Shown: one piece after another, positions 911-60,865 of the stretch
Position numbering within the stretch: the stretch's first letter is position 1
How the letters are laid out: each line of letters begins with the position of its first letter
DNA from: a virus
Length of the DNA stretch: 64,000 bases
Direction: 5' to 3' (one strand)
Virus record (IMG/VR): IMGVR_UViG_3300045988_125828
Location: 4,999 to 68,998 of that record
Program-made: the position numbers and the translations under genes
Notes under the pieces: generated by a model
Told to the model about the DNA's origin: nothing
What the model saw: only the letters and a program-made list of their open reading frames with translations
The model's database searches: none

Positions 911-1109
911 TATATTTGCAGCGTCAAACATATTAAATAGAAAGCAGACGGAAGCCTGCTCATTGTAGGCATTTTTTATGCTTATATGTTCGCTGTATAT
1001 ATAATACAACGGTTGTTACTCCCATGAGAGATGTTAATGCACTCTCAACTGCTTTCTATAAAGTATGTTTGACAATGGGGCGGTTGCAACCGTTTTTTTA
1101 TTTTTTTTT
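911..1109 (+). promoter_or_regulatory. promoter plus structured leader/short RNA ending in an intrinsic terminator (leader L0)
   Basis: TATATTTG 911-918 fits the Bacteroidetes -7 box TAnnTTTG. GTCAAACATA 923-932 pairs with TATGTTTGAC 1064-1073. AACGGTTG 1008-1015 can pair with CAACCGTT inside the terminator CGGTTGCAACCG plus T7 (1081-1099). Confidence 0.5.
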
Positions 1110-1114
1110 AGAAT

Positions 1115-1492
1115 ATGATTGAAATAAGAGGAATAGAAATAACAGAAGAAATGATATTGAATGAAACAGACATTCAAGTTGTAATTAACTGGAAGAATGA
1201 ACTATTAGGTAAGCTATCCGAGTTTAAAGTAAAAACAGCACCATACAAAAGGCTGAGTGCAGGTCAGAAAAAAATAGAGACTTCTATATGGGCATTAATA
1301 AAACTTTGCAAAGCAAAAATAGGAGATTATAATCTTAAACTAAAAGAAGAGGGAAAATGGAAATATAATAGAGAAATAAAAACGCAGAGACATCTTGCGT
1401 CTGTATTTATGGAAATAGCAAAGAATAGATTAGACAAACAAATGTATAAAGATATTTTAGAATTAGCACAAAAGAAAATAAACGAGGTATAG
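1115..1492 (+). CDS. hypothetical protein
   Basis: 125-aa Lys-rich ORF directly after the leader terminator. Confidence 0.55.
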   Translation: MIEIRGIEITEEMILNETDIQVVINWKNELLGKLSEFKVKTAPYKRLSAGQKKIETSIWALIKLCKAKIGDYNLKLKEEGKWKYNREIKTQRHLASVFMEIAKNRLDKQMYKDILELAQKKINEV

Positions 1493-4811: not shown

Positions 4812-5012
4812 TTATTTAAAATATTTGATGATTTGATTTTTTACAAACAGGTTGTCTTTCCATTTAGGAACGCACTCTGTCAGCTTTTGTGCTGTTACCG
4901 CTCTTCCCTCGGCAGCATGTTCGTTTACAAAGTCCTGCAATGCCTTTGAGGCTGCATCCGCTTCTTCCTGCGTATCGGCATATACTTTAAAATTTATTTC
5001 AAATCCTTTCAT
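4812..5012 (-). CDS. hypothetical protein
   Basis: 66-aa ORF packed in the same-strand string. Confidence 0.5.
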   Translation of the reverse strand: MKGFEINFKVYADTQEEADAASKALQDFVNEHAAEGRAVTAQKLTECVPKWKDNLFVKNQIIKYFK

Positions 5013-8051: not shown

Positions 8052-8295
8052 TTTATCGTTATGTTTAAATTTCTTCCTATCTTTGTGTCACGTACAAACT
8101 GTAAGCGTAAATTTTATTAATCAGGCAGACTTTAGTTATCAAGATTACTGTTCGTATTAAATGGTCTGCCTTGCCCGCCTTATTCGTGAGAACAGGACGA
8201 GGTTTTTATAATATATCTTTTAATACGTTTCATTTCGTTTCTATATTAATTTCTTTATCTTTGCAGACAGCATCAATAAGCTAACTACTGTGCAT

Positions 8296-8325
8296 CCCCG
8301 TTTGGCTCGTGAGAGTGGAACGGGG
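8296..8325. terminator. GC-rich hairpin at the 3' end of the 8350-9759 gene
   Basis: CCCCGTT 8296-8302 pairs with AACGGGG 8319-8325. The T-rich tract is only on the plus side (AATTTGCTTATTTGTTT). Confidence 0.35.
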
Positions 8326-8349
8326 AATTTGCTTATTTGTTTCATCGTA

Positions 8350-16937: not shown

Positions 16938-17407
16938 TAGATCGAAAGTGTTATTGGTGTTTGAGGGTCAGTAACCCGGAATGTAACACTGAACGTCAAC
17001 ACATCTCCCTCGTCAGTCTTGCGAACGAAAAGATCCGGTTCTACGGATTTGTAGTAGACACTCTGCCTGCCTATCTTGGTGTAGGTATCGTAAACCTTAA
17101 GCTCTGCACCGGAATTGTCTTTGCCGGAAAGGTAATCCAAGAAGCCAATCACCTTTTCATTAGCTGTATCCATTTCTCCCTTGTATGCAAATTCCACGTC
17201 AAGATCATAGGCTTGCATGTAAAGTTTATCAGGGATAAATGTATCCTCTCCGTCCTCGTCTTTCCAGTCTCTCTTCGGCAGCTCTTTAGTTTCTCCGTAA
17301 ACAGCAAACGGAAAGTCCTTGCACACAACTCCCCATTGGGACTTTGTATCAATAACAGGACTTCCCGGCTTACTCTTTTGAAAATAGATACTGTAAAGCT
17401 TTGCCAT
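16937..17407 (-). CDS. distal tail protein (Dit)-like
   Basis: 156 aa, immediately upstream of the tail tip gene with an overlapping stop/start. Assigned by position. Confidence 0.45.
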   Translation of the reverse strand: MAKLYSIYFQKSKPGSPVIDTKSQWGVVCKDFPFAVYGETKELPKRDWKDEDGEDTFIPDKLYMQAYDLDVEFAYKGEMDTANEKVIGFLDYLSGKDNSGAELKVYDTYTKIGRQSVYYKSVEPDLFVRKTDEGDVLTFSVTFRVTDPQTPITLSI

Positions 17408-17430: not shown

Positions 17431-17479
17431 AAAAAAACAAAAAGAGCCAACTAACGGGAATACCGTTAATCAGCTCTTT
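17431..17479 (-). terminator. promoter-proximal intrinsic terminator T2 (homolog of T1 at 31217-31261)
   Basis: Minus strand reads CAAGCCAAAGAGCTGATTAACGG-TATTC-CCGTTAGTTGGCTCTTTTTGTTTTTTT, a long helix plus U-tract. The flanks are conserved with T1 and the inner helix covaries. Confidence 0.65.
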
Positions 17480-17498
17480 GGCTTGTTCAATGTTGATG

Positions 17499-17553
17499 CA
17501 AATATATAGAATATATTCTAAATAATCAATACAAAAACATAGAAAATAGATGA
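17499..17553. promoter_or_regulatory. divergent promoter/operator cassette
   Basis: Minus-strand -7 box TATATTTG (17499-17506) abuts the perfect palindrome TAGAATATATTCTA (17507-17520). Plus-strand TAGAAAATAGATGA at 17540-17553 is identical to the motif at 31545-31558. Confidence 0.5.
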
Positions 17554-28563: not shown

Positions 28564-29775
28564 TTATTTACCCTTAATGTTCAAGTAGTAGAACCAACGA
28601 ACCTTGTTAGGAACAACCAATCCGGTAACTTCCGATTTGATAGTCTGCGTCATGGTTTCGTCGTTGAATACTTGGCGAATCAGAGTACGCCCGCCGTCAT
28701 ACAAAGCAGTACGTGCACCCGGCGTTTCCATGAAGATAGGACGTCCGCATTGTACGTCTCCCAAATCTTCGTTCGGGACATACGCCATAACACCTTCCTC
28801 GAAGTTCTGCAAGGTCTTGTAGTTGATTTTCTGCGTATCCTTATCGTAGCTTTCTACTACGGAGATAGAATCAACCACTCTGATTTCAGCGCCGATACGA
28901 GCTTCGATAAACGCCTTGATTGCGTCATCTGTGACGAGGTTTGCAAACGCAAGTTGCATATCCTTGTCAGAAATATCCGGACGGTTGGCAACAGTGTACA
29001 TCTGACGGAAATACGGCAGATTGATGATGTCATCCCAAGTAGTCTTGCTTACCTCCCAATGTCCCTGCGGTGCAAAGTCTTTCTCTTTGCTGTATCGGAT
29101 GACATCACGCATCACCTTGATAGGGTCAATTGAAGTTCCTACGGCTGCTTCCTGTGAAACAACTCCTGTTGAATCGACTTTCTTGTACCAATAAGAATCT
29201 TTAATATTCTTCTTGGGAACACCAAAGTCTATTGACAATGAGATGCCAAGAGGATTGTTAGCTGCGTCAATAATCAGATTCCCTTTCTTGGAAATAACCT
29301 GATTTCTCTGATACAGGAACGTGTTGTAGTTACCTCCAAGCAAGCTGTCTACTCCATTAAACAGAAGTTCCATGATTGTAGCCTCTATTTCCGGTGTAGA
29401 ACTGCCGATAGCATCCATCAGCATCATCTTTTCACGCAAGATTTTACGGCTTAACGTAATCTCGTGCTTGAAAGTAGGCAATCCGCCCATTTGCAATGAA
29501 AGGCCGTCGGTTGACTTGGTAGCACCGTCACTGTCAATATCTACGTAGGTAGCCAGCGTGTACGGGCGAATTGTTGCCTCAATCTGTTCGTAAGTAGGAT
29601 TCAGAGGAATGTTAGGATTTAACGGGAAACCCATTTGGGCAAAAGTCTGTTCTGCGTTATACTTATCCGCAAACATGTCGTTAATCCATGCCTCCAACGG
29701 TTTGTTGCCGGTATATCCCATAGCAGCAAGCCCTCTTCCTACAATATCGTAAAATTCTTTGTTTCTTGTGTACAT
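28564..29775 (-). CDS. major capsid protein (lambda gpE-like arrangement)
   Basis: 403 aa, preceded by decoration-like and scaffold-like genes, matching the lambda D-E order. Confidence 0.75.
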   Translation of the reverse strand: MYTRNKEFYDIVGRGLAAMGYTGNKPLEAWINDMFADKYNAEQTFAQMGFPLNPNIPLNPTYEQIEATIRPYTLATYVDIDSDGATKSTDGLSLQMGGLPTFKHEITLSRKILREKMMLMDAIGSSTPEIEATIMELLFNGVDSLLGGNYNTFLYQRNQVISKKGNLIIDAANNPLGISLSIDFGVPKKNIKDSYWYKKVDSTGVVSQEAAVGTSIDPIKVMRDVIRYSKEKDFAPQGHWEVSKTTWDDIINLPYFRQMYTVANRPDISDKDMQLAFANLVTDDAIKAFIEARIGAEIRVVDSISVVESYDKDTQKINYKTLQNFEEGVMAYVPNEDLGDVQCGRPIFMETPGARTALYDGGRTLIRQVFNDETMTQTIKSEVTGLVVPNKVRWFYYLNIKGK

Positions 29776-30533: not shown

Positions 30534-31193
30534 TTATTTGGTTTTCGGGAGCTTGCCTCTTGATTTCATTAACTCCTTAAAGGCTTCTCTTCGGCTTTTT
30601 GCCTGCTCTTCTCCGGTTTCCGCAAACTGATTGATACTTGGGGATGCTCCGTCTCCGAAAATCGCCTTGTATCTTTTCTCGTAGTTGCGTTTAGCACAGT
30701 TTACAATGTCCTCCACTTTCATTCCGTCTGTAATTTCCACATCGGAAATGGCAATGCCGAGGATCTCATCGTTGCAGATGTTTTTACCACCATTCTCGAT
30801 TTGAGATTTCAACTGGCTTTTGGATTCGGCCTTTAACTCGTTGATTGACGCGGCCCTTTTCTCCGCTTCCTTTTCCCCTTTTAGCTGCAAAAGTTCTTCT
30901 TCCATTTTTTTCAATTTGGCGGCAAGCGTTCCCTCGTTTGGTTCGTCTTTTGCATCGTCCGGGATTGGTTGAGGTTTGTAGTTTTTCTTGAAATCCTCAA
31001 CTTGTGTTGCGACATCATGATTGTACTGTCCTTGAAGCCCTTGAAGGAATCCCGTAGCCTTGTTGTAATAATCCTCGGGATCGACACCCTCCGATAACGG
31101 GTTCAATTCTATGTACTTCGTTAATGTCTGTGACGAAAGGCTGGTTTGTCCAAGTCTTGTCGTTAATTCGGATAAGATTTGTTCTTTCTCCAT
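30534..31193 (-). CDS. scaffolding protein
   Basis: 219-aa charged coiled-coil protein (KLKKMEEELLQLKGEKEAEKR), first gene of the capsid block. Confidence 0.6.
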   Translation of the reverse strand: MEKEQILSELTTRLGQTSLSSQTLTKYIELNPLSEGVDPEDYYNKATGFLQGLQGQYNHDVATQVEDFKKNYKPQPIPDDAKDEPNEGTLAAKLKKMEEELLQLKGEKEAEKRAASINELKAESKSQLKSQIENGGKNICNDEILGIAISDVEITDGMKVEDIVNCAKRNYEKRYKAIFGDGASPSINQFAETGEEQAKSRREAFKELMKSRGKLPKTK

Positions 31194-31216: not shown

Positions 31217-31261
31217 AAAAAAAAAGAGCCTATCAACGCTTTGTGCGTCAATAAGCTCTTT
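31217..31261 (-). terminator. intrinsic terminator T1 between the Com-like ORF and the scaffold gene
   Basis: Minus strand reads AAAGAGCTTATTGACGC-ACAAA-GCGTTGATAGGCTCTTTTTTTTT, about a 17-bp helix plus a U9 tract. Confidence 0.7.
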
Positions 31262-31284
31262 GGCTTGCATATCTAATATTACTA

Positions 31285-31464
31285 TTATTCCTTCGTCAGT
31301 CTAACTCTCATAAATTTACGGCATCTCCTGCATATAATCCTAATGGAAGAACTTCCGCAAACTTCCTCAACGTCCATTATTTTCTGTTTACACACCGGAC
31401 ATATTGCGAAGTTTCCTTTTCTATCAGGTAACTCTTCATCGAGTTGGACATCAATTTTTATCAT
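31285..31464 (-). CDS. Com-like zinc-ribbon protein (59 aa)
   Basis: MIKIDVQLDEELPDRKGNFAICPVCKQKIMDVEEVCGSSSIRIICRRCRKFMRVRLTKE. The CPVC...CRRC spacing resembles the phage Mu Com family. Below ORF-track cutoff. Confidence 0.45.
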   Translation of the reverse strand: MIKIDVQLDEELPDRKGNFAICPVCKQKIMDVEEVCGSSSIRIICRRCRKFMRVRLTKE

Positions 31465-31483
31465 ATCACATGATTTAATAATG

Positions 31484-31573
31484 CAAATATATCATCTATT
31501 TTCTATAAAAACAATATTATAGACATATTTTTAAGGGTAAAATTTAGAAAATAGATGAAAAATCGTATATTTG
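31484..31573. promoter_or_regulatory. divergent late-type promoters with a 14-bp inverted repeat
   Basis: Minus -7 box (CAAATATA 31484-31491) abuts TCATCTATTTTCTA 31492-31505. The inverted copy TAGAAAATAGATGA lies at 31545-31558, followed by the plus -7 box TATATTTG 31566-31573. Confidence 0.55.
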
Positions 31574-34341
31574 CACTATATATTACTCATAGAGCTGTGA
31601 ATCAAGCCGGAGTATGCAAAATCATATTGCATGCGACGGCTTATTTTTTTATGGAATACGACGGAATTGTACATACAAAAAATGGAGAAGGCGTATTTAC
31701 TTATGCGCACATAGAAAAGCTGCGTGAATATGGAAATCCGCTTAATATAATCGCCCAAAAAGGATGTCAAGAAAAGTTCCTTGCGTCTCCGGCAGATATT
31801 ACTATATTTGGAGGAAACCGTGGTGGCGGAAAAGCGCTGATATTCAATGAATTAGTGTGTACTCCGTTCGGATTTAGAAAAATCCAAGACATTAAAGCGG
31901 GCGACATAATCACTGGTCTTGACGGAGGAATGCAAAGGGTTGTTTACAATTCCTATCAGGGATTTAAAGAGTGCGTAAGGCTTAAATTCGTTGACGGCTC
32001 TTATGCTGACTGCTGCATAGATCACTTATGGAATATCAAGCAATCTAACCATTGTTCAAAGAAAAGGGCTTTATATAACCTCCCCTTAGAGGATGAATGG
32101 CGAGTGTGGACTACTCAAATGATTATAGACCACATGAAAAAGCAGAAGGGGAAGAAGCAGTCGCGTCATTTATCTGTTCCGTTGTGCAAGCCCGTTCGAT
32201 TTACCAAAGGAAAATATTTCAAGCCTAAATTCAGCCCGTATCTGATTGGTGCACTCATTGGGGACGGATGTATTGCCGATAGTGTAATCAGTAAGAACTG
32301 TTGTTATTTATTTAATCCTGACGAGGAAGTCATTGGCGAGTTCAAGAAATCAGTAGGGTATTCTTCTTGCGAGTTTGAGAAAGGCTGCTACCGCATGCGC
32401 ATCAACGACAAAGAGCTTATCGCAGAGATTCAGAAATTGAATATAACAGGGCGTGCGGCAGATAAACACGTCCCTGACATGTATTTATATGGGACGCTGG
32501 AGGAAAGATGGGCGCTTGTTCAGGGCTTAATGGATACCGACGGAACTATTGATGAAAGAGGGCACCTGTCTTATACTACAATAAGCAAACAGCTTGCGGA
32601 AGATGTAAAATTCCTTATCAACAGTTTGGGAGGATTGGCGACAATTGGCAGAGGCACCGCGGGGTATAGAAATAGCAATGGAGAATTTATACAATGTAAT
32701 GACGCATACACTCTTTATATAAGAATCCCGGATGCCGAAAGGATGTTTCGCGTAAAAAGGAAAAAAGAAAGATGCAAACCTTATAATGGCGGGATAAGCA
32801 TCAATGCGAGAAGAATCATAGGCTACGAGATGATAGGGAAGAAGGAGTGTTGCTGTATTGCAGTGACCAATCCGGACAGTTTGTTTCTAACAAGGGATTT
32901 TATTGTCACTCATAATTCTTGGGCCTTGCTAATGGAGGTCTTGAAAGATATAAATAACCCGAATTTTGCTTCCGTAATCCTGAGAAACGAAAAAGAGGAC
33001 TTGAGTAATATAGTAAACAAGTCTTATGAGCTTTTCTCTCAATACGGAAAGTACAACCGCTCTATCTCGGATATGACTTGGAACTTCTATAACGGAGGGT
33101 TTTTAAAGTTTTCCTATTATGCGGATTCTTACGAAGACTTCGTAAAGCGTTTTCAGGGAAAAGAGTTTGCCTTTATCGGTATAGACGAAATCACTCACTC
33201 TGATTACCTGAAGTTCAAATACCTTATTACCAACAACCGTAATGCCTACGGTATAAGAAACCGTTTTTATGGCACATGTAACCCTGATCCGGATAGCTGG
33301 GTACGTAAATTCATAGACTGGTGGATTGATGAAAACGGTAACCCTATTCCGGAGCGAGACGGGGTAATACGCTATTGCTTCATGGACGGCGACCGACCGG
33401 AAGATATTTACTGGGGGGATTCCGTAGACGAAGTTTATAACCAATGCAGGCATATCATAGATCCGTTACTTACGCCTGGTCTTATCAGTAAGGGTTACGA
33501 CAAGTCGGCATTCGTGAAGACAGTCACATTCATAAAGGGAAAGCTTGAAGAGAACGTTGCTCTTATATCTTCCGACCCTAATTATTTAGCCAACCTGGCC
33601 CAGCAGGACGAAGAATCTCGCGCAAGGGACTTGGAGGGAAACTGGAACTTTAAAGCTGCCGGGGATGATATTATCAAGATGGAACACATGGAGCGCTTCT
33701 TTAAAAATACCGCCCAATACGGAGACGAGAAGCGCAGGGTATCATGCGATATTGCATACGAGGGAGGAGACAACCTTGTCTTGTGGCTGTGGATCGGAAA
33801 CCATATCGAAGATGTGTATGTGAGTAGGGATAATTCCAAGCGGACGGAAGAGTGTGTTGCCTATAAACTTAGAGAGTGGGGCGTGCTGGAAAAGGATTTT
33901 GTTTTTGACTTAAACGGCCCCGGTCAGGATTTTAAAGGGAAATTCCCCGATGCGGTCAGATTTAATAACATGGCTGCTCCGATACCCGCGACAAAAGCGG
34001 ATGAGAAATCAATCAAGTATGTGTACTCCTCTTTAAAATCACAGTGTGCAGATATTCTTGTAAAAAAGATAAAGAACGAGGAGATATCCATAAATTCCGA
34101 TTTGTTATCGCGCAAATTCTCCGGAAACGGATATTCCGGAGTAACCCTTTATAATATTCTTATGAAAGAGAGAAAGGCTATTCGGGACGCGGAAACAGAC
34201 AAAGGGTTTGCCTTAATTAAAAAGGAGACTATGAAAAAATACGTAGGGCACTCTCCTGACTTTATAGAAGCGATGATTTACAGACAAATTTTTGATATAA
34301 AAAAACATAACACAAAACCAAAAGGATTATGGAGATTATAA
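31555..34341 (+). CDS. terL: terminase large subunit, interrupted by an intein
   Basis: Walker A GGNRGGGK|S is split by the insert. Walker B-like FAFIGIDEITH is present, and the portal gene follows. The real start is probably ATG 31651 (MEYDG), downstream of the promoter and terminator. Confidence 0.9.
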   Translation: MKNRIFALYITHRAVNQAGVCKIILHATAYFFMEYDGIVHTKNGEGVFTYAHIEKLREYGNPLNIIAQKGCQEKFLASPADITIFGGNRGGGKALIFNELVCTPFGFRKIQDIKAGDIITGLDGGMQRVVYNSYQGFKECVRLKFVDGSYADCCIDHLWNIKQSNHCSKKRALYNLPLEDEWRVWTTQMIIDHMKKQKGKKQSRHLSVPLCKPVRFTKGKYFKPKFSPYLIGALIGDGCIADSVISKNCCYLFNPDEEVIGEFKKSVGYSSCEFEKGCYRMRINDKELIAEIQKLNITGRAADKHVPDMYLYGTLEERWALVQGLMDTDGTIDERGHLSYTTISKQLAEDVKFLINSLGGLATIGRGTAGYRNSNGEFIQCNDAYTLYIRIPDAERMFRVKRKKERCKPYNGGISINARRIIGYEMIGKKECCCIAVTNPDSLFLTRDFIVTHNSWALLMEVLKDINNPNFASVILRNEKEDLSNIVNKSYELFSQYGKYNRSISDMTWNFYNGGFLKFSYYADSYEDFVKRFQGKEFAFIGIDEITHSDYLKFKYLITNNRNAYGIRNRFYGTCNPDPDSWVRKFIDWWIDENGNPIPERDGVIRYCFMDGDRPEDIYWGDSVDEVYNQCRHIIDPLLTPGLISKGYDKSAFVKTVTFIKGKLEENVALISSDPNYLANLAQQDEESRARDLEGNWNFKAAGDDIIKMEHMERFFKNTAQYGDEKRRVSCDIAYEGGDNLVLWLWIGNHIEDVYVSRDNSKRTEECVAYKLREWGVLEKDFVFDLNGPGQDFKGKFPDAVRFNNMAAPIPATKADEKSIKYVYSSLKSQCADILVKKIKNEEISINSDLLSRKFSGNGYSGVTLYNILMKERKAIRDAETDKGFALIKKETMKKYVGHSPDFIEAMIYRQIFDIKKHNTKPKGLWRL
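31604..31650 (+). terminator. promoter-proximal intrinsic terminator just before the terminase start
   Basis: AAGCCG 31604-31609 pairs with CGGCTT 31637-31642, with inner helix ATGCAA/TTGCAT. Followed by A plus T7 (31644-31650) and then ATG 31651. Confidence 0.6.
31834..32916 (+). mobile_element. intein (361 aa) with LAGLIDADG homing endonuclease, inserted in the terminase P-loop
   Basis: Begins ALIFNELVCTPFGFRKIQDIKAGD (Hint block A with Ala1) and ends FIVTHN followed by Ser. Contains LIGALIGDG and LVQGLMDTDG LAGLIDADG motifs. Removal restores GGGKSWALL. Confidence 0.8.
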
Positions 34342-36643: not shown

Positions 36644-37218
36644 TTAAAAGTTACAATAATATGTTGAGAGGTAAAGAGGAAAAAATTACATTCAGCAAAG
36701 GACTTGGGACCGAATGTAGAAAACTGGGAATCAGCGCAAAAGAAAAGGCTTTTGCAGACCTTTTAGCGCTGGGATGGAAAGATAAAGACGCTTATCTCAT
36801 CTCCGGCCTTTATAACCCTGTGTATAATTTAGAGATGAATAAGAAGAATATGAATGCCCTCCTTTCCCAGGATAAGGACTTCATGGATTATCTCACCTTT
36901 ATAAACAAGCGTGTCAATCGTAGACAGAAAGAGAGCGAGAGAGAGGAAGAGTTTTTGGTTGAAGGTGTCAGTGATGAAGATATTGCGTCTGAACTTTCAA
37001 AGGAAAACCAGCTTCGTAAGCTTATCGCCGCCCGTAAAAAGTACGATGGCAAAGAGGGCTGCAAGGAATGGATAGACCTTACCAAAATGATTGCAGATAT
37101 CACGCAGATTAAGAAAGACGAGATAAAAGAAGAAGATACTACCACTCATTTTTATCTTCCAATTTCATGCAATAATTGCTCCTTGTACCTTGCCGCTAAA
37201 AAGAAAGCCGGGAAATGA
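36604..37218 (+). CDS. possible terminase small subunit / DNA-binding protein
   Basis: From ATG 36661, ISAKEKAFADLLALGWKDKDAYLISG resembles the N-terminal HTH of small terminases. Charged coiled-coil middle. The position after the head genes is atypical. Confidence 0.35.
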   Translation: MAYKVLLLFCICIIKSYNNMLRGKEEKITFSKGLGTECRKLGISAKEKAFADLLALGWKDKDAYLISGLYNPVYNLEMNKKNMNALLSQDKDFMDYLTFINKRVNRRQKESEREEEFLVEGVSDEDIASELSKENQLRKLIAARKKYDGKEGCKEWIDLTKMIADITQIKKDEIKEEDTTTHFYLPISCNNCSLYLAAKKKAGK

Positions 37219-37254
37219 CACCCGGCTACTTCTTCCTTATACATAGGTTTGTGT

Positions 37255-39284: not shown

Positions 39285-39473
39285 ATTTATTATATAACGT
39301 TTTTATAAGCATACCATAAAGAACATAACGGAACTGGGATTAGGTCTCATTCTTAAAAATAACATCTTCTCTTCTCTCTTTTGAGGGTTAAAAATATATA
39401 TATATGTTCTTTATCATCATTATGCAAATATACAACTACTTGATAATAAAACAAGTAATTTTCTAAAAAATAG

Positions 39474-39497
39474 GGGTAAAATTTAGAAAATAGGTGA
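39474..39497 (+). promoter_or_regulatory. copy of the conserved GGGTAAAATTTAGAAAATAGrTGA motif
   Basis: 23 of 24 nt identical to 31535-31558. A related TCTAAAAAATAGG lies just upstream. Confidence 0.45.
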
Positions 39498-39644
39498 TTT
39501 TTTAGAGAATAACGGGAGTTATTGAAAAAATACGGCTTTTTTTGAATGTAAAACATCTTTACAAATGAGGGAAATTGGACGAAAAATGGGGGAAAATAAA
39601 AATTTTTAGGGGTGGTGATTGCATCCGATATTCTTACATATAAT

Positions 39645-39925
39645 AGGGGTGGGGTGGGGTGTTTTCTACGTGGTTGTGTATGGTGTATTGTTGATTATCA
39701 ATGTGTTATAGTTTATATTATTGCTATAATATAAAGTTGTAATATCATTACAAAAGAGGATAATTTCCCGAATATCACAAAAGCTCCAAAATGGACGTAA
39801 TTCATTGATTGTCAACCAAATACCACAATATCATTAATCTACAACTACAACATAACCATATAATCACCTATTAATCAATGAGTTATGCATATATTTCAAA
39901 TCTCCCTATACCCCCGTACCCCTGT
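39645..39925. other. origin-like AT-rich region with large imperfect inverted symmetry
   Basis: G-tract arm TAGGGGTGGGGTGGGGTG (left) faces C-tract arm CCCCCGTACCCCT (right). GT-rich 39671-39704 is roughly the reverse complement of AC-rich 39802-39835. Sits next to the primase-helicase gene. About 1.1 kb has no credible ORF. Confidence 0.35.
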
Positions 39926-40202
39926 TATAAATAATATCTATAAATTAATTATCAGCAATAGATAAAATCTATTATAAGGCTATGCTTGTTGATCCAGTTA
40001 TTATATACTTATACGTTCGTATGCTATAATGTCCCTATATACCCTATTATTTAGTATTATATACTTACATTTGTATATGTGTATTATTATGTTTGTATAT
40101 TGCTGTAAATCAGTGTATTATAACGTTATATTTAATGCTATAAAACATACTTATTTTATTGAAATATTTTGCTATTTTCTTTGCCGTTCCAAATATAATT
40201 CG

Positions 40203-40420
40203 TATATTTGTAATGTAAGAAAGAGGTAAACATAAAGCCTTTAATCTTATAAGCGTTGTTTATATGATGAGATATAAAAGAACCTGCTAACACTGGGAAT
40301 GCTAACAGGTTCAAAGAAGGGAATAACTTAGATAAGTACCCCCCCCAACAGGAAAGGCAAAGGTACTTATCTTGGTTTAAACTTCCAAATTATCCGCTTA
40401 TAAAATTTAGACGCTGTAAT
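40203..40420 (+). promoter_or_regulatory. promoter plus structured 5' leader (L5)
   Basis: TATATTTG 40203-40210. TTATAAGCG 40247-40255 pairs with CGCTTATAA 40395-40403. Inner 11-bp hairpin AGATAAGTACC/GGTACTTATCT (40330-40372) has a C8 run in its loop. Confidence 0.4.
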
Positions 40421-40424
40421 AAAG

Positions 40425-42587: not shown

Positions 42588-42728
42588 ATGTATTTAGGCT
42601 TTATACTTTGGGCGATAATTTTAGTTGTGATCGTGTGGAATACTAACCCGGCACTGGTTATTATATCCGCTGTGATAGGGGTTGTGTTTGCGATTGCAAA
42701 AACAACAGATAATAAACCAAAAGAGTGA
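42588..42728 (+). CDS. micro membrane protein (46 aa)
   Basis: MYLGFILWAIILVVIVWNTNPALVIISAVIGVVFAIAKTTDNKPKE. Preceded by AAGGAGGA. The stop lies 1 nt before the recombinase ATG. Confidence 0.35.
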   Translation: MYLGFILWAIILVVIVWNTNPALVIISAVIGVVFAIAKTTDNKPKE

Positions 42729-43572
42729 TATGGAAACATTAAAGGACGTTTTTTTGAAAAAATACCCGCAATACGGAAAGGTGCTGCGGGTATATGAAGA
42801 GGTTAACGAAACGGAGTGCACCTTCGAGAGTATTACAAAACCAAGGTTGTACAACTTTGTTCAGGCTCTTAATGACAGGCTGGCAACAAACAGTGCTAAA
42901 ACCTATTGCGCTATGTTTAAATCGGTTCTTAACCTGTACAGCGATATGTATTCTTTCCCGAAAGGCTTTGAAGCTATATTAACCCTGAAGAAGGACGCAA
43001 CGCAAAGTACATGGTTAACGGATGAAGAGATCAAAAAACTACTCTCATACGATCCGGTTAATGATACAGAACGGATAGTGAAAAACTGTTTTCTTCTCGG
43101 TTGCCTGACAGGTGCAAGACATTCGGACTACGTATGTTTTACAGAGGACAATATAATAGACGGACGACTGGTTTATATTTCCCAAAAAACGAAAACGAAA
43201 GCGGAAATTCCGGCGGCTCCGGCTGTGTTACGGATATTAGAGGAAAACAAAAGATACGACATTAGCCAACGTAAGCTGTCTGATGTGACATTTAATGATA
43301 CGATAAGGAGTATATGCCGGAAGTGTGGAATAAACCAACGAATAAAACTGTATCAGGCGGGCGAATATGCAACCGGGGAAAAGTGGGAGTTTATTTCCTC
43401 GCATTCAGCGCGGAAGTCTTGCGCAACAAACTTATATCTAAGGGGAGCGGATCTGTATTCTATCAGCCGGATGTTAGGACACTCCAGTGTAACCATGACA
43501 GAAACGTATATTTGTTGCGGGCTGCGTGAATTGTCAGATAAGATAATGAGCTATTTCAACGGGTTTAAATAA
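42682..43572 (+). CDS. tyrosine recombinase (short, no arm-binding domain)
   Basis: GARHSD, HSARKSCATNLY and LGHSSVTMTETY give the R..H-x-x-R..H..Y catalytic set. ATG 42730 (METLKD) is the likely start. Confidence 0.85.
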   Translation: MCLRLQKQQIINQKSDMETLKDVFLKKYPQYGKVLRVYEEVNETECTFESITKPRLYNFVQALNDRLATNSAKTYCAMFKSVLNLYSDMYSFPKGFEAILTLKKDATQSTWLTDEEIKKLLSYDPVNDTERIVKNCFLLGCLTGARHSDYVCFTEDNIIDGRLVYISQKTKTKAEIPAAPAVLRILEENKRYDISQRKLSDVTFNDTIRSICRKCGINQRIKLYQAGEYATGEKWEFISSHSARKSCATNLYLRGADLYSISRMLGHSSVTMTETYICCGLRELSDKIMSYFNGFK

Positions 43573-54056: not shown

Positions 54057-54294
54057 TTTTCCTTTGGCATTTTGATTTGAGTTAGTATCTTTGCGGCATA
54101 CTTCGCCAAAGTATGATATGTATAGTATTCTGATTACGGCATATTTTATGTCGTTTTGACTGCTATATCGCAAAGATATAAGCCGTTAGACTTCCTTGAT
54201 AGGCTGTAATTGGAAACTATTATAGTCGTACTTTGGCGAGTAAAGGGAAGCTAACGGCTTTCTTTATATCTATAACTCAAATTTCATTTATCAA
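54057..54294 (+). promoter_or_regulatory. promoter plus about 200-nt structured leader (L1), paralog of L2
   Basis: 40 nt (54057-54096), including the -7 box TATCTTTG 54086-93, are identical to 59058-59097. Helix a is 54103-13/54229-39. Helix c is AGCCGTTAG 54181-89 / CTAACGGCT 54251-59, overlapping a small hairpin plus T-rich tract. Confidence 0.55.
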
Positions 54295-55039: not shown

Positions 55040-55879
55040 ATGAACACTTCAATTATTAAATTCGATTACAACGGAAATCAAATTCCTTTTGAAAAAGGAG
55101 ATGATGTAATGGTAAACCTTACAGCTATGGCGAAAGCCTATCCTGATAAGAATTTATCCACAATTGTTAACTCACAGGAAATCAGTGATTATTGCGCATC
55201 CCTTTCAAAACTAAAAAATTTTAGTTTTGCTGATTTACTGATAGTTAGGAAAGGAGCACCCGATTTAGGAGGAGGTACTTGGGCGCATCGCCTTGTCGCT
55301 ATTCGTGTCGCTCAAAAACTAAATTCCGATTTAGCGGTATGGGTGGATATGAGAGTGGATGAACTTCTTAAATACGGCATGACCGCTACACAGCCAACTT
55401 TGGAACAAATGATTAACAACCCCGACCTTGTTATCAGCCTTGCCACCCAGCTAAAGAACGAACGAGAGGAGAAACAAAGGATAGAGACAGAAAATTTGTA
55501 TCTAAAAGAACAGAATGAAGCACAGCGCCCGGCTGTTGTATTTACAGAAAGCGTAAAGGTAAGTAACACAAACATACTTATTGAAGACCTTGCGAAGCTG
55601 ATAACTCAAAATGGATATACTATTGGGGAAATCAGATTATATAATTGGTTGGTGGATAATGGGTATTTGATACGGCATAAAAGATGGAGCAATTCAAGAA
55701 GGAAATATGAAAACTATTATACTCCAACGCAGAGAGCTGCGGAAATGAAGTTGTTTTGGGTTTCAGAAAGGGTAATTTCAAATCCAGGTCAACCGCAGTT
55801 TACAAAATTTACATGCTATGTCACAGGAGAGGGGCAGGTGTATTTTATTAATAAATTCAATAAATTAAAAGTAGCATAA
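55040..55879 (+). CDS. KilA-N / KilAC (ANT) antirepressor-like protein (copy 1)
   Basis: N-terminal segment IKFDYNGNQIPFEKGDDVMVNLTAMAKAY...GTWAHRLVAIRVAQ is KilA-N-like. C-terminal segment LAKLITQNGYTIGEIRLYNWLVDNGYL...VTGEGQVYF is KilAC-like. Confidence 0.75.
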   Translation: MNTSIIKFDYNGNQIPFEKGDDVMVNLTAMAKAYPDKNLSTIVNSQEISDYCASLSKLKNFSFADLLIVRKGAPDLGGGTWAHRLVAIRVAQKLNSDLAVWVDMRVDELLKYGMTATQPTLEQMINNPDLVISLATQLKNEREEKQRIETENLYLKEQNEAQRPAVVFTESVKVSNTNILIEDLAKLITQNGYTIGEIRLYNWLVDNGYLIRHKRWSNSRRKYENYYTPTQRAAEMKLFWVSERVISNPGQPQFTKFTCYVTGEGQVYFINKFNKLKVA

Positions 55880-59057: not shown

Positions 59058-59292
59058 TTTTCCTTTGGCATTTTGATTTGAGTTAGTATCTTTGCGGTGA
59101 AAAGTTCGCCAAACTTTTATAATACAGCATTTAGGATAGGGATTTTTTATATCCTTATGACTACTGCTTATCGCAAAGATATAGCCGTTAGTTTCCCATT
59201 GAATACCTATCCATTTGCGATATGTAGAAGTTTGGCGACTTGGGGAGGCTAACGGCTTCTTCTTTATATATAACTCAAATTTCGTTTTCAAA
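59058..59292 (+). promoter_or_regulatory. promoter plus structured leader (L2), paralog of L1
   Basis: -7 box TATCTTTG 59087-94. Helix a is TCGCCAAACTT 59106-16 / AAGTTTGGCGA 59228-38. Helix c is AGCCGTTAG 59183-91 / CTAACGGCT 59249-57. Confidence 0.55.
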
Positions 59293-60049: not shown

Positions 60050-60865
60050 ATGAAAACAAATCAAATTTTCCAGTACAATGGAAATCCTATCACTTTTTAT
60101 AAAGGTGATAACGTTATGGTGAACGCCACTGAAATGGCTAAGCCGTTCGGTAAATTGGTTGGTGATTGGATTAGATTGAAAACTACTACCGAGTTCGCAG
60201 AAGCACTTTCAGCCGATATGCAGATTCCCATATCGGCACTAATTCAAGTAGTTAAAGGAGGAAATAATGAACAAGGAACATGGATGCACGAAGATATTGC
60301 TTTGGAATTTGCCCGTTGGCTAAGTCCTGCTTTTGCTATATGGTGTAATAAGCGCATCAAAGAATTACTCCAATACGGCATGACTGCCACGCAGCCAACT
60401 TTGGAGCAGATGATAAACAACCCCGACCTTGTTATCAGTCTTGCAACACAGCTAAAGAGCGAACGCGAGGAAAAGCAAAGGATAGCTTGTGAAAATCAAA
60501 TCCTCAAAGAACAAAACAAAAACATAATTGAAGAAACCAAACCAGCCGTAACATTTACAAACGCTTTTAGAGGGGCGGAAAGTTCATGCCTTATCGGAGA
60601 GCTTGCAAAGCTCATTGCGCAGAATGGATATAATATAGGTGAAAAGAAATTGTTTGCTTGGATGCGCGAAAACGGATATTTAGGCAAACATGGAGAAAGG
60701 TATAATGTACCTAATCAGAAGTATATCGAACAGGGGTTATTTGTAATCAAAAAAGGTGTACGTTCCGGAAATAATGGAGTTTTGCATACCACTTTGACTA
60801 CAAAGGTGAGCGGCAAAGGCCAGGTTTACTTTGTGAATAAATTCCTTAATTCGTTTTCAATATGA
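60050..60865 (+). CDS. KilA-N / KilAC (ANT) antirepressor-like protein (copy 2)
   Basis: GTWMHEDIALEFARWLSPAFAIW is KilA-N-like. LAKLIAQNGYNIGEKKLFAWMRENGYL...NQKYIEQGLF...VSGKGQVYF is KilAC-like. 60372-60485 is closely similar to 55371-55484. Confidence 0.75.
   Translation: MKTNQIFQYNGNPITFYKGDNVMVNATEMAKPFGKLVGDWIRLKTTTEFAEALSADMQIPISALIQVVKGGNNEQGTWMHEDIALEFARWLSPAFAIWCNKRIKELLQYGMTATQPTLEQMINNPDLVISLATQLKSEREEKQRIACENQILKEQNKNIIEETKPAVTFTNAFRGAESSCLIGELAKLIAQNGYNIGEKKLFAWMRENGYLGKHGERYNVPNQKYIEQGLFVIKKGVRSGNNGVLHTTLTTKVSGKGQVYFVNKFLNSFSI

Follow-up and report, generated by a model that had tools for sequence, protein, structure and literature searches.

How can a phage hold back its virion and lysis genes, and activate them late, when each of the operons starts from a host-type promoter and runs at once into a terminator-type hairpin? 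The question is raised by a 64,000-nucleotide (nt) stretch of viral DNA, positions 4,999 to 68,998 of the IMG/VR record IMGVR_UViG_3300045988_125828 (hereafter the window), which comes from a temperate, LoVEphage-like phage of Bacteroides. A preliminary description, made from the sequence alone, had noted divergent promoters, each followed by a terminator, ahead of the scaffold and terminase genes, and had proposed antitermination of the Q type. From a comparison with relatives we arrived at another answer, to which we assign a probability of roughly 0.5: the three late operons would be subject to terminator-specific antitermination by a 59-amino acid (aa) zinc-ribbon protein that resembles Com of phage Mu and that would clamp a small hairpin at the foot of each terminator.

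The late genes are organized in three operons, namely tail/lysis (from 17407, minus strand), scaffold/capsid/tail tube (from 31193, minus strand) and terminase/portal (from 31651, plus strand), and all virion and lysis genes are placed behind one of three leader terminators, M1, M2 and M3, respectively. The divergent promoters both carry the -7 box TATATTTG. P-left (31484-31491, minus strand) would drive the zinc-ribbon open reading frame (ORF) and, by read-through, the scaffold/capsid/tail-tube operon, while P-right (31566-31573, plus strand) precedes the terminase leader. Both boxes fit TAnnTTTG, the Bacteroidetes sigma-A -7 consensus as cited in PMC7366714, and the extended form TAnnTTTGCA occurs 13 times in the window against 4.7 expected. 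The promoters of the window are thus of the Bacteroidetes type (-7/-33), and because of this a scan for sigma-70-type promoters was uninformative. In the relatives, the -7 box lies 18-26 nt ahead of the zinc-ribbon ATG.

Leftward, the terminator of M2 (T1, 31217-31261, minus strand) is composed of a 17-bp hairpin (31223-31261) and U9 (31217-31225), 23 nt ahead of the scaffold ATG. The hairpin folds at -23.1 kcal/mol (z = -6.9) and was the best match of the terminator scan. Rightward, the M3 terminator (31604-31650, plus strand) is a two-tier hairpin (31604-31642) with the lower stem AAGCCG/CGGCUU and the upper stem GUAUGCAA/UUGCAUGC, followed by an A and by T7 (31644-31650) abutting the terminase ATG at 31651; its folding energy is -21.5 kcal/mol (z = -6.7), and 0 of 200 shuffled sequences folded equally well. 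All elements listed in the preliminary description, i.e. a 14-bp inverted repeat, both -7 boxes, both hairpins with their T-runs and the 59-aa ORF, were found at the coordinates given there. It had overlooked the third module, M1 (17431-17506, minus strand), which has the same design and lies before the tail/lysis operon, with a -7 box (17499-17506), a foot hairpin (17471-17484), a 17-bp hairpin and U5-G-U7 (17431-17443), followed by the ATG at 17407. M1 and M2 have the 13-mer CAAGCCAAAGAGC in common, and a pattern for this type of module gave exactly two matches per genome in both the window and BI-TP1. Together, the three terminators of the window fold at -21 to -25 kcal/mol with z about -5 to -7, and each has the make-up of an intrinsic terminator, i.e. 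a GC-closed hairpin with a U-tract directly after it on the transcribed strand. Rho-independent terminators have been predicted genome-wide in Bacteroides, backed by RNA-seq coverage drops (PMC7366714), and we infer that the three U-tracts are sites of termination in vivo.

Transcription of the late genes from a start downstream of the hairpins, which the preliminary description had named as a refuting observation, was looked for: the 0-25 nt that separate U-tract and start codon leave no room for a -7 box, and a hidden promoter there was consequently ruled out. The start codons are unpaired and lie past the U-tract, 10-25 nt beyond it in A-rich leaders (M1 and M2) or directly after it (M3), and the leaders of the terminase and tail operons encode nothing. 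A role of the hairpins as 5' stabilizers or RNase sites was rejected, as it leaves the U-tracts unexplained.

The arrangement is widely conserved. Relatives were sampled from 80 IMG/VR loci, LoVEphage/BI-TP1, Dulem virus 40 and 19 species-level GTDB prophages; comparisons of M3 and of the protein were made over 14 lineages, counts at the terminator feet over 17 M1/M2 modules and folds over 31 module instances. The 80 IMG/VR loci, which fall into clades at 96-100% and about 75% scaffold identity, all retain the zinc-ribbon ORF, both hairpins and both -7 boxes, and changes in their stems are compensatory (e.g. GACGC/GCGUU to AGUGC/GCACU). The scaffold and terminase modules were also found in LoVEphage/BI-TP1, in Dulem virus 40 and in the 19 prophages, the hosts of which are Bacteroides, Phocaeicola, Muribaculaceae, Porphyromonadaceae and Sangeribacter, with upper stems that are unrelated in sequence; the major capsid proteins of LoVEphage/BI-TP1 and Dulem virus 40 are only 26% and 59% identical to that of the window, respectively. 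BI-TP1 and Dulem virus 40 have the tail-operon module as well. Every one of the 31 instances folds strongly (-19.5 to -33 kcal/mol, z -3.4 to -7.8) and is followed by a U-rich tract. These values stem from folds of individual sequences, as RNAalifold on a MAFFT alignment of M3 gave the lower stem only, the variable upper stems being misaligned. The claim that terminator-type hairpins stand between the promoters and the essential late genes is thus well supported, by folds and shuffles as well as by a layout conserved in every relative examined. A distant tail-gene relative, MT836885, has a plain promoter without a leader terminator, in a record too short to judge the zinc-ribbon gene. Regulated read-through is the most economical reading of the promoter-terminator-late-gene layout, since consensus promoters precede the terminators, room for a downstream promoter is absent and the layout is conserved with covariation.

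Besides the U-tract, the invariant parts of the terminators are located at their 5' foot, where a second, much smaller hairpin can be formed. In M2 this is AAGC[CAAAGA]GCUU (31253-31266, minus strand), the 3' strand of which is the start of the terminator 5' strand, and in M1 it is AAGC[CAAAGA]GCUG (17471-17484, minus strand). M3 (31591-31609, plus strand) has the box AGAGCU and then the helix GCU[GUGAAUCA]AGC, whose 3' strand begins the terminator 5' strand AAGCCG. The foot hairpin comprises 3-4 bp and, because one of its strands also belongs to the terminator, excludes the latter: when the M2 foot is forced, the rest of the stem stops 15 nt short of the U-tract, and the energy changes from -23.1 to -9.8 kcal/mol.

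The feet follow the consensus (R)RGC-C-N2-5-GA-GCYY in M1/M2 and AGA-GCYU-loop-ARGC-CGG in M3, and both covary. Over the M1/M2 feet, 64 out of 68 cells are paired (19-31 in slid registers), the closing C-G pair is present in 17/17 modules, and the stems are compensatory, with AAGC/GCUU, AGGC/GCCU, GAGC/GCUC and GGAC/GUCC all represented. Pairs were counted with an anchored script, a MAFFT alignment of the feet having moved sequences with 5-nt loops by one column. In the M3 feet 52/56 cells are paired, including the compensatory variant GCCU/AGGC, and AGAGCY is found 14-18 nt past the P-right -7 box in 13 out of 14 lineages, the exception being locus L088 with AGGAGT instead. Strand-sharing with the terminator and conservation by covariation, the two properties looked for in an attenuator like those at ribonucleic antiterminator (RAT) sites, are accordingly both present. 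The anatomy is that of a predicted antiterminator which would require a clamp: the M2 foot alone folds at -2.3 kcal/mol, and a foot this weak (about -2 vs -23 kcal/mol) would depend on a factor that clamps it on the emerging RNA. Pairing in trans between the AGAGCU and AAGCC boxes of the M2 and M3 leaders was rejected, with only 5-6 nt of complementarity.

A candidate for the clamp is encoded in the leftward leader. The zinc-ribbon ORF (31285-31464, minus strand; CxxC...CxxC) is the only protein-coding gene between P-left and its terminator. Every IMG/VR locus spanning the region has it intact, as do 19/19 GTDB prophages, Dulem virus 40 and LoVEphage, and in 19/19 prophages it lies upstream of the scaffold terminator. 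No lineage is without it, L088 included, in which it was missed by tblastn. The gene is generally missed by gene callers and is unannotated in BI-TP1 and LoVEphage, and a protein homologue search with the ORF retrieved itself alone. The protein motif reads CPxCxQK...R.xCRRCrk (CPxCGQKL...R.KCRRCKKY), and a single CxxC-x17-19-CxxC ribbon, with C22, C25, C45 and C48 invariant in the 14 lineages, gives the protein the size and ribbon of Com. The preliminary description had recognized no antiterminator gene, and as far as the Q, N and NusG/KOW families are concerned this holds for the 50 ORFs scanned with Pfam (64 kb of an approximately 70-kb genome, with few genes outside), while a PHROGs search added nothing relevant to a regulator. 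The Com-like ORF, which had been treated mainly as a passenger, is nevertheless the best candidate.

The RNA target points in the same direction. In systematic evolution of ligands by exponential enrichment (SELEX), the RNAs selected by Mu-type Com have a 3-4-bp stem, invariably closed by a C-G pair, with GAG(N)2CC motifs to either side of it; Com binds hairpins bearing CC(N)2-3GAG, the native Mu site being AUGC[CUGCGA]GCAU, and its binding is thought to melt an adjacent inhibitory hairpin (PMC6483171). The foot in the window has the same stem length, closing pair, hexaloop C-NNN-GA and predicted fold as the Mu site, at -2.3 vs -2.4 kcal/mol. The Com-type motif CC(N)2-3GAG was found at the foot in 17/17 M1/M2 modules, counting AC for CC in L088 and two modules with N4. 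Furthermore, GCCNNNGAGC occurs three times in 128 kb (both strands), and two of these occurrences are the M1 and M2 feet. A profile of the protein also aligns, if weakly, with the whole zinc finger of Mu Com, and we regard the link to Com as a good lead and the protein as a candidate member of the family.

The following sequence of events is proposed. Each late operon would be read from a host-type sigma-A promoter and blocked by the intrinsic terminator before its first gene, and this blocked state would yield leaders of about 70-85 nt from P-right and from the tail promoter, P-tail, and the zinc-ribbon mRNA from P-left, plus tRNAs in the relatives. As the zinc-ribbon gene precedes its terminator, its product would be made even during termination. 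The protein would then bind the emerging foot hairpin before the 3' strand of the terminator is synthesized. It is established that a hairpin lacking the bottom pairs next to the U-tract cannot release the transcript, and with the foot held, the stem bottom beside the U-tract would not form and RNA polymerase would continue into the late genes. Build-up of the protein would open all three operons, in the manner of a delayed, self-reinforcing late switch. Both the binding of the foot by the zinc-ribbon protein and the timing of the switch are predictions of this scheme.

A number of observations weigh against this proposal. The foot is only 3-4 bp long and the terminator is about 13 kcal/mol more stable, so that everything depends on the putative clamp. 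The M3 foot is without the C-NNN-GA loop motif, only 3 bp of it are possible in the window, and its loop would be 2 nt at the 4-bp register in LoVEphage and loci L101 and L102; the M1 foot of the window has 3/4 pairs. Although only 3 out of 5000 partner shuffles reach the observed 64 pairs in the M1/M2 feet, this figure is no probability, because the lineages are related and the foot alignment is hand-anchored. The Com motif is short, and its conservation could also be due to the pairing of GAG with CUC at the base of the terminator. As for the protein, sequence searches of Pfam, PHROGs and PDB with the ORF and its alignment returned generic zinc ribbons only and no Com family, BLASTP against Mu Com was not significant, and a profile comparison with Mu Com (AF083977) by hhalign gave a weak probability of 70% (E = 4e-5 over 33 columns, covering the whole zinc finger). 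A single-sequence structure model was uninformative (predicted local distance difference test, pLDDT, 67), with nothing below E = 2 in Foldseek. By analogy, the protein could instead bind DNA, like the zinc finger of P2 Ogr.

Promoter activity seems to be under a separate control. Between the divergent promoters lies a perfect 14-bp inverted repeat (TCATCTATTTTCTA, 31492-31505; TAGAAAATAGATGA, 31545-31558), which at up to two mismatches has six occurrences in the window against 1.2 expected, with 0 of 100 shuffles having as many. The view of this repeat as a conserved motif has to be narrowed: the core conserved in relatives is 8-9 bp, ATTTTCTA/TAGAAAAT, and the perfect 14 bp are restricted to the clade of the window. 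Pairs of the core were counted five times against 0.2 expected. The nine-mer TTAGAAAAT, at one mismatch, showed no genome-wide enrichment, which is confined to the paired inverted arrangement. Four core pairs are found in the window, every one inside a divergent intergenic region, i.e. at the tail operon (17513-17547, spacer N19), between scaffold and terminase (ATTTTCTA-N39-TAGAAAAT, 31498-31552), in the primase promoter region (39458-39491, N18) and in the promoter region of the early HTH_17 operon (49373-49407, N19). In BI-TP1 each of the two divergent late-promoter regions (tail; scaffold/terminase) contains a copy with N8, and Dulem virus 40 has the variant TGGAAAAT with N39. From 8 to 18-19 the spacer grows by about one helical turn and from there to 39 by about two, so that the half-sites would stay on one face of the DNA. 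The gap between repeat and -7 box varies widely (3, 5, 6, 6, 13, 13, 15, 25 and 37 nt). The repeat therefore looks like an operator for a flexible dimeric DNA-binding regulator, separate from terminator control, rather than like a fixed promoter element or Q-binding site, and in the window it is not late-specific. Such a regulator would set promoter firing, and two locks would have to open together. A second type of operator is represented by the palindrome CTATAAAATATTATAG/CTATAATATTTTATAG at 46789-46804, 49221-49236 and 49251-49266. The first and third copies abut TATCTTTG -7 boxes at 46805 and 49267 (both plus strand), and the second is situated about 30 nt upstream of the box at 49267. This is probably an immunity-region operator, distinct from the TAGAAAAT repeat.

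Of the explanations that compete with a Com-like clamp, the closest accepts the antiterminator and assigns the clamping to another agent, e.g. a host RNA-binding protein, another phage protein or an RNA, leaving the zinc-ribbon protein to act, for instance, as an Ogr-like DNA activator at the repeat. The evidence from the foot hairpins is independent of the protein assignment and serves this version equally, the family membership of the zinc-ribbon protein is weak, and in P2, too, the packaging and capsid operons are separated by divergent late promoters, which a small zinc-finger activator controls. It is chiefly because of this alternative that our confidence is held at the level given above. 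We nonetheless consider it unlikely. The variable distance between repeat and promoter fits an activator poorly, the foot matches the experimentally defined RNA site of Com in stem length, closing pair and loop motif, and the strict position of the zinc-ribbon gene upstream of the terminator suits a factor that is needed before read-through.

Another possibility is that the hairpins are factor-independent attenuators or insulators, with a constant leak that sets the late gene dosage or shields the cell from toxic genes in the lysogen, and with the repeat regulator as the real switch. The repeat is indeed found in all three late promoter regions, and in most relatives the scaffold terminator comes after one to eight tRNA genes, like an ordinary operon-end terminator. 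Depending on the lineage, 0 to 8 tRNA genes separate the zinc-ribbon ORF from this terminator (loci L085, L088-L105 and L002), with none in the window and its 75% clade, a single tRNA-Met, the commonest case, in many prophages, and eight in LoVEphage. Also, the U-tract of the scaffold terminator is 7-10 long among near-identical contigs (loci L003-L082), a variation that is likewise counted in favor of this reading and that could represent homopolymer slippage or assembly or sequencing noise. A constant leak is still a doubtful explanation. No proteins of the cycle have to be expressed more highly than those of capsid and tail, yet the only route to them passes through hairpins of -20 to -30 kcal/mol with U7-U10; in addition, neither the conserved, co-varying, competing foot hairpin nor the non-coding leaders of the terminase and tail operons would be explained.

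Processive antitermination of the Q type, in which a DNA-binding factor docks at a promoter repeat, loads onto the paused polymerase and makes it resistant to terminators, has in its favor that the terminators are directly downstream of the late promoters, that a conserved repeat is located between or beside the -33 and -7 positions, and that AGAGCY is nearly fixed at 14-18 nt from the P-right -7 box. What remains of this proposal is the regulated read-through, as its specific components, i.e. a fixed site, a pause element and a Q family protein, did not materialize. The idea of a Q-binding element in the -35 region was abandoned, as the distance from repeat to -7 box extends from 3 to 37 nt, the half-site spacing can be N8, N18-19 or N39, and the repeat occurs in the window also at the primase and early promoter regions. 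No conserved TAnnTTTG-like pause repeat was found downstream of P-right in the 14 lineages (the window has only TATATATT, with two mismatches), and Pfam detected no Q family in the 50 ORFs. Moreover, in relatives the scaffold terminator is 200-1300 nt from the promoter, past the ORF and up to eight tRNA genes, and still keeps its own foot hairpin, which a promoter-loaded factor would not need; this argues for control at each terminator rather than for loading at the promoter. We thus hold a Q-type mechanism to be quite improbable. A phage sigma factor or RNA polymerase was also rejected, none being found by Pfam in the 50 ORFs. Finally, translational activation as in Mu com-mom, with a protein binding the hairpin and thereby freeing the start codon of the next gene, is the sole demonstrated function of Com (PMC6483171) and has the same order of small zinc-finger gene, hairpin and target gene, yet it is highly improbable here, where the start codons are not sequestered and U7-U10 abutting GC-closed stems would be superfluous.

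The nearest named relatives of the window phage are Bacteroides LoVEphage, Bacteroides phage BI-TP1 and Dulem virus 40, and its scaffold protein is 100% identical to that of the IMG/VR contig UViG_3300045988_135065. The gene order, which matches that of BI-TP1, has the virion and lysis genes to the left, the divergent capsid and packaging operons in the middle, and then the primase, the integrases and a long rightward early block. The scaffold-like gene (30534-31193, minus strand; ATG at 31193) heads the head/tail-tube operon, which includes the major capsid gene (28564-29775) and reaches to about 19683. The tail/lysis operon begins at the ATG at 17407 (minus strand) with the first tail gene, and has holin and endolysin-like genes farther along. 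The large terminase gene (31651-34341, plus strand), whose start is supported by relatives aligning from residue 1, is intein-interrupted and heads the packaging (terminase/portal) operon, which stops at an ordinary bidirectional terminator (37206-37227). The intein, of about 353 aa (31858-32916, plus strand), is inserted directly after Walker A (GGNRGGGKALIFNELV|C...VTHN|S) and has the LAGLIDADG-like blocks LIGALIGDGC and LMDTDGT; the terminases of BI-TP1 and Dulem virus 40 (544 and 530 aa, respectively) are without it. Two KilA-N/ANT antirepressor-like genes (55040-55879 and 60050-60865, plus strand) and two tyrosine recombinase genes (42682-43572, plus strand; 44169-45302, minus strand) were also identified, while no LexA-like (S24) repressor was recognized in the window, unlike in BI-TP1. 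No tRNA genes are present in the window, and a scan of its full length with Rfam gave no family.

Several other non-coding features of the window deserve mention. At 46805-46940 (plus strand), a TATCTTTG promoter has downstream of it a long-range hairpin spanning about 105 nt (CCGTTGCAAGTCAAGCGGCAAC ... GTTGCCGCTTGACTTTAGCAACGG), T7 and an ATG near 46936, the ORF of which has no family match and the leader of which is without a Com-type foot; this is either another leader terminator or a small RNA. At 1064-1117 (plus strand), the -7 box TATGTTTG is followed 9 nt on by the short palindrome CGGTTGCAACCG, T7-A-T9 and then an ATG at 1115, constituting either a weak leader terminator or the end of an upstream unit. 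An identical 38-bp promoter segment, TTCCTTTGGCATTTTGATTTGAGTTAGTATCTTTGCGG, occurs at 54059-54185 and 59060-59190, 5 kb apart, each copy facing a convergent TATCTTTG box about 90 nt off; this arrangement, ahead of 54295 and 59215, might represent paired sense/antisense small-RNA cassettes. Between the primase promoter and the next gene, 1.1 kb (39285-40424) are non-coding and might serve as a replication origin or as an attachment region; this stretch contains AT-rich repeats, G-runs (GGGGTGGGGTGGGG at about 39646-39659) and several -7 boxes, which occur on both strands. Lastly, a TATCTTTG -7 box at 8256-8345 (plus strand), aimed into the 3' end of a minus-strand tail-fibre gene and followed by a hairpin (CCCCGTT...AACGGGG), may give rise to an antisense or small RNA.

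Relatives of LoVEphage are found at high prevalence in the human gut, and some of them, e.g. BI-TP1, are inducible prophages in culture. If the proposed antitermination is true, it explains how phages with consensus host promoters can silence their lysis and virion genes and then activate them late; it also adds a second, transcriptional function to the Com family, and provides gene control in Bacteroides with a compact and portable pair of terminator and antiterminator. More tentatively, and with somewhat lower confidence than in the antitermination itself, Com-like zinc fingers might constitute a previously unrecognized class of terminator-specific antiterminators, a single protein of which would open all virion and lysis operons of LoVEphage-like phages through its hold on a 4-bp hexaloop hairpin at the three terminator feet. 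The co-occurrence of terminator, competing foot hairpin and zinc-ribbon gene across five Bacteroidales groups is a clear signature that would stand even with another protein in the role of the clamp. Antiterminators clamped by a protein have been described before, as have late terminators close to the promoter. What appears to be undescribed is the use of the two together as master late switch in a widespread group of Bacteroidota phages, with a Com-type hairpin as antiterminator and a Com-like protein as probable effector, and in the literature we found nothing on late-gene regulation in LoVEphage, on late antitermination in Bacteroides phages or on zinc-ribbon or Com-like antiterminators.

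Among known systems, Mu Com shares with the window protein its size of about 60 aa, the CxxC...CxxC zinc ribbon and the location of the gene just upstream of the target. The RNA targets of both are 3-4-bp hairpins with a closing C-G pair and CC-N2-3-GAG, and binding is thought in Mu, and predicted here, to remodel a far stronger neighboring hairpin. That neighbor hides a start codon and acts on translation in Mu, whereas here it is an intrinsic terminator with the starts free; Mu has one accessory gene as target, as compared to three targets per genome here, covering all late genes. The proteins differ as well: they are only marginally similar in sequence, the window protein has no Com match in Pfam, and it carries 20 additional N-terminal aa, including conserved D9 and Q12, while the C-terminal tail of Com is missing from it.

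In the sugar operons under BglG, SacY or LicT, a weak antiterminator hairpin at the RAT overlaps the 5' strand of the terminator and works only when clamped by the protein. The foot in the window overlaps the 5' strand of its leader terminator in the same way. It is, however, much smaller than a RAT, Pfam found no protein with CAT or PRD domains among the 50 ORFs, and the setting is the timing of phage late genes instead of the sensing of sugars. P2 Ogr and P4 Delta are small zinc-finger activators of divergent packaging/capsid late promoters, with repeats at several late promoters. A small zinc-finger protein, divergent late promoters for packaging and capsid, and repeats at several of them are all found in the window too, but the Ogr sites are fixed at about -55 and lack leader terminators, whereas the repeat in the window varies in position, and the window protein has no Ogr_Delta match in Pfam.

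In lambda, as outlined in PMC7547250, an active late promoter at PR'-tR' is followed by a terminator, and a short RNA is made until the antiterminator comes. The window resembles the Q system in having terminators between late promoters and late genes, and the N system in that the candidate factor is a small basic protein encoded by the first gene before the first terminator. It differs from both in having no fixed-position Q-binding element, no pause element and no protein of the Q or N families. Instead, the recognition elements are located at each terminator, which points to an action that would be local rather than processive.

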